Counted from the stretch's first letter, positions 1,602-24,505 are shown. The stretch is DNA of 64,000 bases from an uncultured Rivularia sp. (GCA_963665115.1 OY762007.1:5952001-6016000), one strand, 5' to 3'. Notes: a model not told the origin generated them from the sequence alone. Translations and numbers: made by a program.

Positions 1602-1985
1602 TCACACTAAAAATATTAATTTACTAATCACCTGTTTTCGCTCTTCCCTTGTCATACCTCCAATAAGTGATTCAACGACCTTTATTTTTTCATCAGTTGT
1701 CAATTTATGTAAATGCGCTAGCGCCTCTTCACCTAAAAGTAGCTCCCTTTTATCTACAGTTTGTCTTCCATTCAAAATTGCCAGTAATTCTTCTACTGAA
1801 TATTCTGTTTGAGGCGCAATCAGCGTCACAGTATCAATTGTTGGCATATGCACGCACTTTTCAATCCGAGAAATAGTTGCTTTATTTACACCAACAATTT
1901 TGGCGTATTCACGTAAACTTAAATGACCTCGCGAACGCTTAACAATCTCTCCGAATTTTTCCAAACCCAGTCGCTTACTTTTCAT
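1602..1985 (-). CDS. XRE-family HTH transcriptional regulator (cI-like repressor candidate)
   Basis: LSLREYAKIVGVNKATISRIEK HTH motif; divergent from the primase operon once the tnpB element is removed. Confidence 0.8.
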   Translation of the reverse strand: MKSKRLGLEKFGEIVKRSRGHLSLREYAKIVGVNKATISRIEKCVHMPTIDTVTLIAPQTEYSVEELLAILNGRQTVDKRELLLGEEALAHLHKLTTDEKIKVVESLIGGMTREERKQVISKLIFLV

Positions 1986-2890
1986 TCTTCGGTTCGTGTG
2001 TCAGTAAACAGGATTCAGTTCCTTCATAAATACATTAATTCGCCTTTAAGTGCAATATTGCTACACTATATAGTTGCCTTTCGCATAGTCATATATATAC
2101 ACATATAAACTATCTACTTAGTTTGAGTTAGTATCACGTATCAGACAAGCAATCGAGCAAAAGCTAGGGGAGTGCTTGTATCCTGGTACGTTAACTAGCC
2201 TTGGTTGAACTACGCAACCCTTTATCCCCTGGCTAAAAGCATCGGGGAATTCTTTTCTCAAGATGTTGTACGAACCGTTGATATCGGCATTTATTAAGCC
2301 AGATTTGGAACGATACAAACCACGTTTGATTCTTACACCACTTGGTTTCCAATTTGGTGGGACCTGTCCATAATTGGGAATATCATCAAGTTCGAGAAAA
2401 CTTGCCTTGCTGGTATAAGATTCTTCGCGTATGTCGACTTTTATTCCCGCTAATAATCCTTTGTAAGTTAACATATCAACAAATTTTTTATGAGGCAAAG
2501 AAACGAATTTTTGATTGCTTCGTTTACCCATATTGCAACGTAATTTCCAGTCTGGATTTAAACCAATTACTAAAGTGCCGATATCCGAATCTTTGAGAGT
2601 GGAGATTAGTAATCTTGATGCTCTATGAAGGTAAGAATCAATTTGATGATTCCTTCTACGAGTCATCAATTCCATTTGATTTGACCAATCCAAACTATGT
2701 AATTTTTTGTTGATACTACGTAACTTCGAGATAAATTTGTTATAGCGATTGTTAATTGATTTTATCGGTCTGCCATTAATAAGAATCGGAACGAATCCGG
2801 GCTTATTTGAAGTTACAGCCGCAATCGTATTAACCCCTAAATCAATCGCTGCAATATAATTATTATCTGTATTTACTACATCAATACTTT

Positions 2891-5056
2891 GTATCCCCTC
2901 AAAATTTCGGGGTATCGGCTGTCTTGAATGTCAACTACGATAAAAAAAAGCAGCGGCGCAACTGGGGAACCGCTACGCTGATTTGACGGTACCAGGTAGG
3001 GGCAGATAGATTTTACATAGGCACAGAAAATAATCGTGCCCCCACCTGGCACTCCGCTGTCGCCGCCAAATCTTCCCCAGTTGCTGGATCTCTCGTGAGA
3101 GCAACAAATAAATAAAAATAATCAAAATCAAGAAATTGATTAATAGCGGAAGTTGCAAATAAGGTAAATTGTAAATATGCTATCAAAGTAACTAAAAAAG
3201 TTTCAATCGCTTATAAAAACTATGAAGAAATAGATGTGGTTAATCCATGCACTTTACAGTATTCTACAACCAAGGATATGAGGGTTTAGCACAGTCTTAA
3301 TATACAGGGGTGTTATTGAGGCATCCATGACCAACCATAGGAATTAGAAGAAGATTTCTTCCGAATAATTGTCCCCAAAGATGGAATATTTTCAACTTGA
3401 GAAATGCGGTCACGCATATACTCATAAAAACTGATACCCAACTTACGAGTAGTGTCAACAAGGGACATAAAAACATCCCACGCTTTTGTGCCTTGTTTTG
3501 TCTGGGTTGCGTAACTGATGTTACGTCGTTGTACCATAGTCCTAGCAGCTAATTCGGCAGGGTTGTTATGCAATAGTAATTCTGGATGCTCCAACACGAG
3601 AAGCAACTCGTTTACTTTCAAAGTAGTTAATCGTTTTCGCTCATCTAACTGTTGATAACCACTTTTTTCTGTAAAAAGTGTCCAAAATTCCATTTCTAGT
3701 TCGTGAGCTTTATCCCAACTTGGAGAATCTCGATAAGATAATAATTTTCTGTAATATTCCCAGAATCTTTCTAGAAAATTATCTAAAAGTTTTTGATGGC
3801 AAGGTATAAGCGGACTTAATTTCTTATAATGTCGTCCTTCATGCACCCAACAAAGAGCCAAATCCGATGTTATTAACTTGAACTGCGGAGCATCATCGCA
3901 TACTAGAGTTGTAATTACTGGTACAGTTGATTGCTGATGATAAAAAGCAATTGCTGCCGATTCATATATGCGAGAACGGTGTTGAGAACCAAGTCTACTT
4001 AAGTACTCACCAATCAAAAAATTAAACTCAGTTTCGGTAAAAGCCTTCTGTTGAGATAGTAATTTTAGTTTATTAACCCACTTAATTGGAACTTTAAAAG
4101 TCTCCAAAAGTTCATAGGTCATCTCGTTGAGAACAAAGGAGAGTTCGGTTGTGTTTTGAAATACTTTTAATACAGTCAAACGGTCTTTGTATCGCGTTGT
4201 TTGGTAAATTGTGTACAAGGGGTTACAAATCACATTTGTTGTATGGTTCACTCCTGCAACACGCGCACCTGTTTGGTCAAAGTGTTGCCAAGGACTGCTG
4301 GCTAACCCTTCCTTGTATACTTCTTCGTATTCAGCTTCAAAATATTCTTGGTTTTTAATTAATAAATTTGATATTGTTCCTGCACTAATCGAGATACCAA
4401 TATCTTCTAAAAATTCTAATAACTTCCCTTGGGTCATGTTTCCACCATAATATAGACTCATGACCAAAGCTTTTACTCCTGGACCAAATTCACCTTCGTA
4501 ACCTGTTGGTAGTTCCGCTAAATAAGTTTTTCCTGTTTCTGGTGAGTAGTATTTTTGCTTGCGGAACAGTATGTTATCTGGCTTAAGTAAAATGTCTTGG
4601 ACTACTACTTCCTCATAACCCTTGAACTGTGCGTCTGCTGGTAATTGTTCTTGTGGGTAAACTACAATCTCTTCTCGGTTTATCTTGATAGACTCGTTTT
4701 TACTTGCTTTACTGTGTTCTTTTGCTATTTTTCGTTCTTTTTCTGATGAATAGTTTTTCTTAAACCCTTTGTTTTTATTCGCTTTGATGTCTGGTTTACC
4801 TTGTTCACCTTTTAAGCGGTTGTTTTCATCACGTAGTTTTTGATTTTCTTCTTCTAATTCTTTGATTTTTACATTTAGCTGTTCTATTAAGTTGAGTAAT
4901 ACTTCTACCGTTTGACGCACGTCCTCGTCTGCAATCTGTTTTGGGTCGATTGATTGCAATAATGCTGTGACTAATTTTTTAGATGATCGTTTTTGCGTCA
5001 TGCTTCATATTCTACGACGCAAGGTGTACCTTTACCCCATTTTTTTGAGCGGATAC
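2891..5056 (-). mobile_element. IS66-family insertion sequence (single-ORF type)
   Basis: Imperfect 24-bp TIRs GTATCCCCTCAAAATTTCGGGGTA / GTATCCGCTCAAAAAAATGGGGTA; 8-bp TSD AATACTTT at 2883-2890 and 5057-5064. Confidence 0.92.
3313..5001 (-). CDS. IS66-family transposase
   Basis: 562 aa; N-terminal coiled coil; HFDQTG, VCDDAPQF, LCWVHEGRH, HNNPAELAAR motifs typical of IS66 DDE transposases. Confidence 0.88.
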   Translation of the reverse strand: MTQKRSSKKLVTALLQSIDPKQIADEDVRQTVEVLLNLIEQLNVKIKELEEENQKLRDENNRLKGEQGKPDIKANKNKGFKKNYSSEKERKIAKEHSKASKNESIKINREEIVVYPQEQLPADAQFKGYEEVVVQDILLKPDNILFRKQKYYSPETGKTYLAELPTGYEGEFGPGVKALVMSLYYGGNMTQGKLLEFLEDIGISISAGTISNLLIKNQEYFEAEYEEVYKEGLASSPWQHFDQTGARVAGVNHTTNVICNPLYTIYQTTRYKDRLTVLKVFQNTTELSFVLNEMTYELLETFKVPIKWVNKLKLLSQQKAFTETEFNFLIGEYLSRLGSQHRSRIYESAAIAFYHQQSTVPVITTLVCDDAPQFKLITSDLALCWVHEGRHYKKLSPLIPCHQKLLDNFLERFWEYYRKLLSYRDSPSWDKAHELEMEFWTLFTEKSGYQQLDERKRLTTLKVNELLLVLEHPELLLHNNPAELAARTMVQRRNISYATQTKQGTKAWDVFMSLVDTTRKLGISFYEYMRDRISQVENIPSLGTIIRKKSSSNSYGWSWMPQ

Positions 5057-5832
5057 AATACTTTGTTTAACTGTATAAATTACTTCAATTATATAACAAC
5101 CAGTTGCTGGTATAATCCGCACGCAGTCATAATTATTTGAATGTTTGGATTGAATGCGAATGTTCGTTTTGTATAAGTGAATTATTCCATTTCTTTTCGC
5201 TTTTTTATAAGCTCTTGTGTGAGGATAAGTAACTTTATAACGTCCGGTGTTACGTGGTTTATATTTTGGTGGTTTTGGTCTACCAGTAAAACCACTTTTA
5301 TCCAGTTTCCATTGTTTTATTCCCTTAAAAAAGCTTGTCCATTCTTCATTAACTGATTTCATCACCTGTTGAGCTAGAAATGCAGGTAAGTTATGGTAAC
5401 AAGCTGTTTGTTTCATTAATGAGTCGATATTTTTGTGTAATTCCGTTTTGCCGAACTTAATTACACCATGACCATAAAACCATGATTGACGTTGTATATA
5501 AAGCCCTTGGTTGCGAATGATATTGGCATTCAAACAAACTTGGTCGCATTCAGACCAATATTTATGGGATTTATTTATGACGTGTTTTTCTACGAGCTGC
5601 ATGGTTGTATTGCAACATATCGAACCAAACCCTATACATTAAACATGATTATTGAGTCGTAAGTACATTGCACGTAACAAAAATCATTATTAACATCCGC
5701 AGTAGTGGAGTAACGCCGATATTTGATTATATTTGTATATATTTTTTGCGAAGTTATGCAATACCCCTGCTACGTCTTTCTATATATTGACTTGACCTTT
5801 TATTAAAATATAAAAAAATAATTCTTTTCTTG

Positions 5833-5861
5833 CTGACAATACACCTATAGAGGTGTATCAT
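5833..5861 (+). promoter_or_regulatory. Promoter (CTGACA-17-TATCAT) with palindromic operator ATACACCTATAGAGGTGTAT covering the spacer
   Basis: Operator at 5839-5858 is 19/20 identical to the perfect palindrome at 17175-17194. Confidence 0.65.
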
Positions 5862-23966: not shown

Positions 23967-24055
23967 TTGAAAATTTAAGCAATTTTTGAACATAGGACTA
24001 AGGCTGCGCGTCACAACAAATGGCAGACTGGCACATACCTTTAAAATTTAAGTAA

Positions 24056-24229
24056 ATGCACTTCTTCCTTATTCCAAAAAGCGTTCCGGGACTTGAAGAT
24101 GCAAATCTTATTGAGCTCGTTAACTTTTTCAAACGCACTCGACAAAGACAATACGATTATTCTTGTACTGATTTCATTGAACAAGCGGAAGTTTTTATTG
24201 AAGAATTAGACGCGACTATTCGAGTTTAA
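24056..24229 (+). CDS. Small hypothetical protein (57 aa)
   Basis: Manual translation MHFFLIPKSVPGLEDANLIELVNFFKR... Confidence 0.35.
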   Translation: MHFFLIPKSVPGLEDANLIELVNFFKRTRQRQYDYSCTDFIEQAEVFIEELDATIRV

Positions 24230-24478
24230 AACAACAGAATTATTGTTAGCGATAACTCAAATAAAGTTCATATTTTTGCTTACAATGGTTCATCAATTTG
24301 GGTTAACAATCGTGCGTGTACTCATTCAATTTAAATCAAGAACCAAAAAATATTCCTGCGTAAGGCTTAATAATTTTTTTTAGCGATAGTCAAAAATATG
24401 CTCGCTATATAATCTGCACTATTAGTCAAGGTGTAGTATGAGTTAAGTAGCTATAATCCTTATATAAAGAGCTTTTTA

Positions 24479-24505
24479 CCATATTATCATTTCGGATAAT
24501 GTGGC
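24479..24505 (+). repeat. dif-like dyad site, copy 1 (CCATATTATC-ATTTCG-GATAATGTGG)
   Basis: 25 bp identical to 55696-55720. Confidence 0.7.

Follow-up and report, generated by a model that had tools for sequence, protein, structure and literature searches.

A stretch of 64,000 nucleotides from an uncultured Rivularia sp. (GCA_963665115.1 OY762007.1:5952001-6016000), which lies within one 8.69-Mb contig of the genome referred to here as G000 and is called the window in its full length, raises the question why a primase-helicase gene is paired there with an operon that ends in a transmembrane (TM)-anchored P-loop ATPase, and what such an operon does. An earlier note on this DNA had described the pair as an element without capsid or relaxase genes that may transfer DNA between cells. 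We find that the core of the operon, at 20826-23966, is one copy of a module that is real, widespread and unannotated. It consists of a gene for a protein with one TM segment, a multi-TM gene and the gene for the TM-anchored ATPase, and it faces a primase, often behind ParM, on cyanobacterial plasmids and integrated elements. We consider below whether this module may spread the DNA of its own element from cell to cell.

Gene order, spread and conservation of the module

That a primase replicon is paired with the membrane and ATPase operon had been noticed in the window, and the same pairing recurs far outside it. In 21 loci that were compared, the multi-TM gene was upstream of the ATPase gene in all 21, a primase was present in 16 and the other five end at a contig edge, ParM was present in 11, and a relaxase lay within the fetched flanks of three. 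In loci from other families (15 were fetched, one of which belongs to the host family), a primase was found in 11/14 and the multi-TM match was followed by a P-loop gene in 13/14, and primase and ATPase families of the window type stand head to head on five further contigs. With the ATPase as a single query, it was found in 16/36 other genomes of the host family and in 0/24 genomes from other families of the order; as a profile it matched 825 clusters at 50% identity, and the multi-TM profile matched in 30/401 genomes across the class, in seven families. The multi-TM gene gave 57 plasmid rows, all of which we take to be from filamentous genera, and the primase, used as a control, gave 10/38 plasmids from unicellular genera, counts in which kin are not independent of each other. 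In the model strain PCC 7120 there are copies on pCC7120alpha (49437-51257, WP_010999624.1) and, with a GKS-type motor, on pCC7120epsilon (12110-13876, WP_010994159.1).

The operon that the earlier note had placed at 19101-23966 was confirmed as a run of co-directional genes, the last of which encodes a P-loop ATPase whose N-terminal part contains a hydrophobic hairpin. The ratio of nonsynonymous to synonymous change (dN/dS) against the related genome G010, a simple pairwise estimate, was 0.04-0.21 for six operon genes, whereas it was 0.49 for a piece of a phage portal gene on the same element. The core module is intact and is under purifying selection. There is no Pfam or NCBIfam model for it, and a sequence-profile search of the PDB returned nothing for the one-TM or multi-TM family and only P-loop noise for the ATPase.

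Non-homologous operons of like build (helix-turn-helix (HTH), coiled, TM, TM and TM-ATPase genes) were seen in G006, G016, G017 and G020. On a plasmid contig of G026 a group II intron reverse transcriptase gene lies between the one-TM and multi-TM genes (L023:17218-18789), a three-gene pPIWI-RE system is immediately downstream of the ATPase gene in G008:C303 (L037:1653-8804), and at L053 the operon is near a nitrogenase fragment, integrases and a serine recombinase.

Fold and motifs of the ATPase

In the predicted model of the ATPase (pLDDT 74.9, pTM 0.57), a hydrophobic hairpin and a helical anchor are followed by a P-loop domain, and the tail is helical. The anchor spans residues about 30-256 and the hairpin is made of helices 63-104 and 108-133; a hydrophobic segment is found within the first 200 residues in 105/112 relatives. 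The motor spans 290-547, with the Walker A sequence GAGGTGKG at 316-323 and the Walker B residues DE at 404-405. When this P-loop domain was compared by fold, the matches included VirB4 (Z 16.1, root-mean-square deviation 3.1, 212 aligned), TcpA (Z 13.2, 3.6, 218), HerA (12.8, 4.5, 221) and FtsK (12.1, 3.5, 205). The top rows of the list were VirB4, TcpA, DndH, HerA, B204 and EccC (Z 12.6-16.1), those below VirB4 being tied with each other and with FtsK (12.1-13.2), and in Foldseek the best rows for P-loop translocases were TcpA and FtsK (E 5e-4 to 8e-4). By predicted fold, in Foldseek and in structure alignment alike, the ATPase groups with the FtsK-HerA superfamily, as expected of the translocase that had been proposed; on this model the superfamily appears settled but the subfamily is not.

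Three types of motor occur on the shared anchor or in the shared operon, namely the GKG type of the window, a GKS/GKT type and a true FtsK_SpoIIIE domain. The canonical GKS/GKT Walker A was found in 10/14 distant loci. Fusions of the anchor with FtsK_SpoIIIE were 4/82 scanned (P0082, P0087, P0093 and P0133, E about 1e-21 to 1e-23), and in G652:C28 a multi-TM gene comes directly before the anchor and FtsK gene, the motor being exchanged in its operon context. FtsK_SpoIIIE (PF01580) had no match in the window protein or in any of the non-fused members scanned (0/78). Because canonical FtsK is on a long branch in a quick motor tree and the deep nodes are unsettled, we claim no donor or order of motor exchange.

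Plasmids and integrated elements that carry the module

The description of the element as relaxase-less holds for the window element, in which neither a relaxase nor a VirB4/TraG-type gene was found, but it does not hold for the family. The 50 PLSDB records with a window-type ATPase, several of which are the same plasmid in sister strains, comprise 28 mobilizable, 11 conjugative and 11 non-mobilizable ones, so that 39/50 are mobilizable or conjugative. This is not above the frequency in a Tolypothrix strain, in which 13/15 plasmids have a relaxase according to the accessible text of its description (PMC9679502). When 11 small plasmids, picked by size rather than at random, were examined whole, a MOBP or MOBV relaxase without an annotated VirD4 was found on 7/11 and an annotated structural gene on 0/11; three of the seven relaxase plasmids have a GKS-type motor, and their membrane genes were not matched by our profiles. 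Four complete plasmids (13, 17, 22.6 and 24.5 kb) had no match to the relaxase families PF03432, PF01076, PF03389 and PF08751 or to the VirB4/TraG P-loop family PF19044, a search that did not include MOBH, MOBC and MOBT. The ATPase looks whole in three of the four, and the operon is fragmented in the 13-kb plasmid. No linked relaxase or VirB4-containing channel was found in the window or in these four plasmids by Pfam scan and family searches. No single class of relaxase is coupled to the module: MOBP and MOBV were assigned by record typing, and a MobA/MobL relaxase lies beside another copy. Since the module is found on plasmids with and without a relaxase, it neither needs nor excludes one.

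The contig of the window (G000:C1) has MobV genes at 1735775, 4255173 and 5910016 and VirD4-like genes at 1747583, 4247119, 5903095 and 6046622. They form three pairs in which two of the relaxases are split, no PF19044 match was found in the genome, and the pairs are likely remnants of integrated plasmids. On MOBP plasmids of Nostocales (L023:5320-9067, L069:6641-9678 and L073:28381-31390) a three-gene operon divergent from mobC encodes an ATPase similar to TraL (NCBIfam E 1.7e-6), and the one in L023 also encodes a DUF6753 protein; the arrangement resembles RP4 traK-L-M.

The module is also present in integrated elements of about 17 kb (L038-L039 in G008:C305, L040 in G009:C23, L027-L028 in G036:C1 at 2.71-2.73 Mb, and L143 in G970:C11, from another family). 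These have integrase(s), a primase or DnaB helicase, the membrane and ATPase operon, and a late block that encodes a collagen-repeat protein, conserved proteins of 271 and 165 amino acids, a holin-like protein and an endolysin; the endolysin and collagen-repeat genes were seen in the elements of the host family. No terminase, portal or known capsid gene was found in them. The most conserved late gene had no recognisable capsid fold (weak matches, best Z 5.5), and the 271-residue late protein has 59 relatives and a weak 2H-phosphoesterase-like resemblance (Z about 5). These elements are possibly an undescribed group of tailless temperate viruses. In viral contigs no relative was confirmed, in scans by exact short patterns that are weak evidence.

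What the module may do

The reading that we favour, although we give it slightly less than an even chance, is that the module is a TraB/Spd-like, relaxase-independent system that spreads DNA from cell to cell. The one-TM protein, the multi-TM protein and the FtsK-HerA motor would form a membrane complex, and this complex would pump double-stranded DNA of the element itself into an adjacent cell, driven by ATP and without a relaxase, either across the septa along a filament or between touching filaments. We suggest that the element moves its own double-stranded DNA through a membrane because this is a function that plasmids with and without relaxase, integrated elements and perhaps phages would have in common, and because the module is fixed beside the replicon and is compatible with FtsK. 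A bolder proposal, which we hold to be doubtful, is that this is a cyanobacterial relaxase-independent transfer system that evolved apart from TraB/Spd, with a channel of two membrane proteins and an exchangeable FtsK-HerA motor, and that it spreads plasmids, integrated elements and phages along filaments.

Several observations weigh against transfer of this kind, and those on the motor are the most serious. In FtsK-HerA motors the motifs are a Walker A GxxxxGK[ST], a Walker B with a catalytic Glu, a Gln sensor and an arginine finger. Among 86 aligned members of the window clade the catalytic Glu is retained in 85 and the Gln sensor in 53, but the Ser/Thr of Walker A is replaced by Gly in 74 and Arg is not one of the four residues most often found where FtsK has its arginine finger. 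Two arginines of the motor, Arg509 and Arg533, are conserved. Because the Walker A Ser/Thr and the arginine finger are lost, the window enzyme may be altered or inactive, and this is our main caution. Moreover, after de-duplication by sequence, GKG is found in 48/57 distinct ATPases, mostly from Nostocales loci, and hence the motor of the window clade may be slow or may not be a pump. The profile of the window motor resembles that of the GKS/GKT members (98%) more closely than that of FtsK (50%), and no winged-helix match was obtained for the C-terminus, where the fold comparison spanned 290-547 only. A clt-like repeat array was not found in four regions near the window operon. Cyanobacteria have an outer membrane, and the core has no outer-membrane or wall-cutting gene. 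The relaxases on seven of the plasmids examined whole, and the presence of the module in a Waterburya bin and a Chroococcales bin, which we take to be non-filamentous, also do not favour a relaxase-independent route along filaments. As to phages, the top named match of the window ATPase in a viral fold library was a protein of 712 amino acids (A0A482MIE7, E 2e-8) from the Nodularia phage vB_NspS-kac65v161, but it matches by fold alone, with a TM-score of 0.30, and tblastn of phage genomes gave no relatives.

An alternative that we consider unlikely, although it has several points in its favour, is that the ATPase acts as a coupling protein like TcpA and passes a relaxase-bound single strand to a helper type IV secretion system (T4SS) of the MPF-C class, the copies without relaxase using one in trans or decaying. 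TcpA, VirB4 and TrwB are among the fold matches, the ATPase has a weak TrwB_AAD_bind match and a DPKGD motif, relaxase plasmids have no annotated VirD4 of their own, MobV and VirD4-like genes are present elsewhere in G000, and a NikA-like gene is upstream in the window. On pCC7120alpha, however, there are a separate VirD4 and VirB4 (alr7206-7213, in the accessible text of PMC8600333), and the annotation gives no T4SS gene within 15 kb of the operon. ParM is transcribed together with the operon, which is linked to a primase rather than to a relaxase; the relaxase, where there is one, is of three classes and is seldom in the fetched flanks. That ParM heads the operon in 11 of the 21 loci and on several whole plasmids would instead fit an intracellular aid to segregation, in which the module, together with ParM/ParR, would tether plasmid DNA at the septum as it closes, or clear it from there, without transferring any. 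FtsK-type motors do clear DNA from septa, and a degenerate motor would suit a tether. We nevertheless find this improbable, as the module occurs without ParM in the window, on pCC7120alpha and in the integrated phage-like elements, and ParA/ParB are already present on many carriers.

The module may also move no DNA and act in entry exclusion, against phages or in protein export, in the manner of HerA or EccC. In the fold comparison HerA defence ATPases, DndH and EccC/EssC score level with the translocases (Z 12.6-13.1), and among named Atlas clusters the closest is 'HerA domain' (score 0.91; 40% of its members have DUF87). We think this quite improbable, since the conserved core, in an analysis that did not extend to PADLOC, has no nuclease, sirtuin or WXG-like partner, its site in the replicon backbone is fixed and not among the cargo, and in one relative the motor has been replaced by FtsK. 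Very improbable is a role in packaging or extruding the genome of a tailless virus, or that the region is a dead prophage: purifying selection acts on the operon, whereas the portal is in decay, none of the 11 whole plasmids has an annotated structural gene, and the most conserved late gene of the 17-kb elements gave no recognisable capsid fold. What speaks for it is that the module lies beside holin-like, endolysin and collagen-repeat genes in those elements, that the packaging ATPase B204 is among the fold matches (Z 12.8), and that the window has a portal remnant.

The element in the window

The features of the window element are collected in Table 1. They come from scans of 31 open reading frames (ORFs) between 1.6 and 30 kb with Pfam and of 19 ORFs with PHROGs, and also from NCBIfam.

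Table 1. Features of the element and of its possible far right end, in window coordinates
Feature	Position	Strand	Remarks
XRE-family repressor	1602-1985	-	Pfam HTH_3
TnpB insertion, IS200/IS605-type	about 2070-5760	-	pieces 5012-5602 and 2118-2693, interrupted by IS66
IS66	3313-5001		nested in first TnpB insertion; 10 identical copies in genome
D5/P4-type primase-helicase	6137-9211	+	Pfam, PHROG and NCBIfam scans; dN/dS 0.17-0.19
Coiled-coil protein, function unassigned	9273-10487	+	second copy at G000:6.199 Mb
C5 DNA methyltransferase, truncated	10522-11145	+	Pfam; 207 amino acids vs 308 in G006, G010, G011
Mobile KilA-N cassette	11142-12181	+	ORF 11305-12168, Pfam
Tailed-phage portal gene (HI1409 type), 3' fragment	12270-12881	+	PHROG 146, E 3.7e-12; dN/dS 0.49
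Second TnpB-type insertion	13035-15084	-	ORF 13091-14833, NCBIfam match
Three uncharacterised genes (253, 95, 141 amino acids)	15081-16801	-	15081: dN/dS 0.13
Ribbon-helix-helix protein, NikA/MobC-like	17519-17866	+	26 bits, below cut-off of 27; no relaxase after it
Small XRE regulator, divergent from operon	18666-18875	-	Pfam and PHROG scans
Two uncharacterised genes: putative HTH (127 amino acids, by eye only), helical (191 amino acids)	19101-20071	+	
116-residue protein, small family (6 loci)	20139-20489	+	
HNH-like pseudogene	20490-20829	+	two frameshifts
Core gene 1: one N-terminal TM, coiled stalk, small conserved domain	20826-21281	+	
Core gene 2: multi-TM, about four TM segments	21284-22003	+	
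Core gene 3: TM-anchored ATPase	22086-23966	+	TM hairpin, helical anchor, FtsK-HerA motor, helical C-terminal domain
Tyrosine integrase, then dnaB 3' fragment	61239-62834	+	integrase 61239-62417; possible far right island end

The repressor, primase-helicase, KilA-N and XRE genes that had been named in the earlier note were all recovered by ORF and family scans. The methyltransferase is a C5 enzyme, and its gene is not intact, being cut off by the KilA-N cassette. No match in Pfam, NCBIfam or PDB profiles bears out the ParB-likeness of the protein at 20139, and the gene called HNH-like is a pseudogene whose intact homologue gives a weak HNH match (E 0.01). The statement that there is no capsid or terminase gene has to be revised, as the window has the portal fragment and a terminase follows the same run of genes in G006. 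Two TnpB insertions with the nested IS66, and the NikA/MobC-like gene, had been omitted.

The left arm is best read, by its gene content, as a plasmid-type replicon carrying tailed-prophage remnants. The XRE repressor diverges from the primase when the insertions are discounted and adjoins the primase promoter in G010 and G006, and the best named relatives of the primase are Nostoc plasmid Reps (54%). When the 19 ORFs were scanned with PHROGs for tailed-prophage genes (terminase, portal, capsid and tail), the portal fragment was the only one found; a similar portal piece is present in G016 (E 4.3e-14). In G006 the same run of XRE, primase, coiled-coil and methyltransferase genes is followed first by a small HTH gene and then by the gene for a large terminase subunit (PHROG 2, E 9.5e-21); an integrase lies on the opposite side. 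Of satellite-type genes (PICI/P4), a primase and an XRE gene are present and the other genes had no matching PHROG families, in a general PHROG scan without satellite-specific models. Two related tyrosine integrases in G006 (L076:13079-16561 and L077:11065-11532) split what is by eye a cytochrome c oxidase subunit I gene, so that this relative appears to be a gene-interrupting element, presumably of the kind of the nifD element. A second, decayed copy of the coiled-coil and methyltransferase genes is found in G000:C1 at 6.198-6.204 Mb (L042:17703-19933 and L043:117-3897), preceded by a different TM-ATPase operon with endolysin-like and HNH-like genes, of which whole versions are present in G016, G003 and G013.

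In the right arm, genes like 15081 are also upstream of related operons, and the genes at 19101 and 19496 occupy the position that ParM/ParR has in many relatives; the same two genes are on pCC7120alpha. Membership of the protein at 20139 in a widespread small 'KPLGY' family was considered and ruled out, as separate profiles show that the families are distinct, and this gene is therefore outside the conserved core.

There are four insertions within 1.6-24 kb: the two TnpB insertions, IS66 and the KilA-N cassette. The first TnpB insertion, with its IS66, is missing from G010 and G006, and metagenome contigs start at 5761; the second is bypassed by joints in 3/4 metagenome runs. The KilA-N cassette (1 kb) has copies of 92-96% identity at differing sites in six other genomes of the genus, without a transposase. 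In four metagenome runs, each from a different study, the depth of coverage is similar for both arms, with no single contig spanning the entire stretch, and G010 has the same gene order on three contigs with 92-96% identity. Because of the similar depth and the same order in G010, the two arms belong together in this lineage. No integrase was found within 1.6-24.5 kb and no att pair, comparison of 850-1700 with three right-hand regions giving only chance matches of 10-15 bases. The integrase followed by a dnaB 3' fragment near the end of the window is a possible far right end of the island; in G010 an integrase that is 62% identical to it comes directly after the operon region, and there are four dnaB-like matches elsewhere in the genome. 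The suggestion that the window element represents a new capsid-less satellite class is not supported; the element is a decaying integrated mosaic with a portal remnant, and it probably cannot excise on its own.

To the left of the element, at 1-940 and in L001, are by eye a fatty acyl-AMP ligase/carrier/thioesterase-like gene and a sulfotransferase-glycosyltransferase cluster. On its right, the block at 24830-30000, with an HSDR_N-like gene, toxin-antitoxin-like pairs and a CcbP-like gene, is duplicated around 6.143-6.167 Mb of G000 at 91-96% identity. Farther along are two uncharacterised genes at 35441-38319 (423 and 498 amino acids, the first with a C-terminal TM segment and an acidic tail), a four-gene cluster at 47430-52917 that by eye resembles a chaperone-usher pilus locus, and uncharacterised reverse-strand ORFs at 57553-58907.

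Comparison with known systems

No description of the operon was found in the literature, in a search that left subscription papers largely outside and supplements unread. In the accessible text of a study of cyanobacterial ParM (10.1101/2025.06.27.661541) the words 'FtsK' and 'primase' do not occur. The current model counts 374 of 424 cyanobacterial plasmids as immobile, and a further route of transfer has been suspected there, according to the accessible text of PMC8600333, and the module is a concrete candidate for such a route. It is present in the model strain PCC 7120 and can be knocked out now, and if the favoured reading is true, passage of DNA across the septa of filamentous cyanobacteria becomes directly testable.

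The MPF-C T4SS (pCC7120alpha alr7199-7213) has the same hosts as the module and is even on the same plasmid, but it is a separate locus with VirB4 and homologues of VirB3/6/8/9/10 in the accessible part of its description (PMC4027160), none of which was seen in the operon. TcpA (pCW3, MPF-FA) is similar in having N-terminal TM segments and an FtsK-like motor and is the best Foldseek translocase match; it differs in that it acts together with a relaxase and a channel that contains VirB4 (PMC12857230, accessible text), neither of which is linked to the module. The left arm shares a repressor, primase, methyltransferase and portal fragment, and in G006 a terminase, with temperate phages that have an HI1409-type portal, but the window has no capsid, tail or whole portal gene and the best named relatives of its primase are plasmid Reps. 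In Thermus transjugation the ATPase TdtA of the donor cell also drives DNA into an adjacent cell by a route other than classical conjugation (PMC5365140, accessible text); the present motor is TM-anchored with two dedicated membrane partners, and it is by description, not by sequence, that the two are set apart.

The closest comparison is with Streptomyces, in which double-stranded DNA is moved by TraB with 3-7 spd genes, SpdB2 having four TM segments (accessible text of PMC4447253 and PMC12857230) and homologues also on actinophages (PMC4447253). Since the window clade does not match PF01580, the module is not a member of TraB/Spd; nor were clt repeats found in the four window regions searched, or a winged helix in the part compared by fold. 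It also differs in its degenerate Walker A, its diderm host, ParM in the operon and a relaxase often on the same plasmid. Actinomycete integrative conjugative elements are laid out with integrase, Rep, Tra and att; in the window no integrase was found in 1.6-24.5 kb and no att pair, and relatives such as G010 have an integrase beside the operon region. The survey of these elements is restricted to Actinobacteria, and its accessible text does not mention cyanobacteria (PMC3218068). Like the module, TraB/Spd (pSVH1, pIJ101) and these elements combine a small replicon with an operon that encodes a single FtsK-like motor anchored in the membrane together with small membrane proteins, without a T4SS (accessible text of PMC4447253 and PMC3218068), and in some cases have a primase-type Rep and an integrase, in mostly filamentous hosts. 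The conserved order of a one-TM and a multi-TM gene resembles the spread proteins in architecture only.

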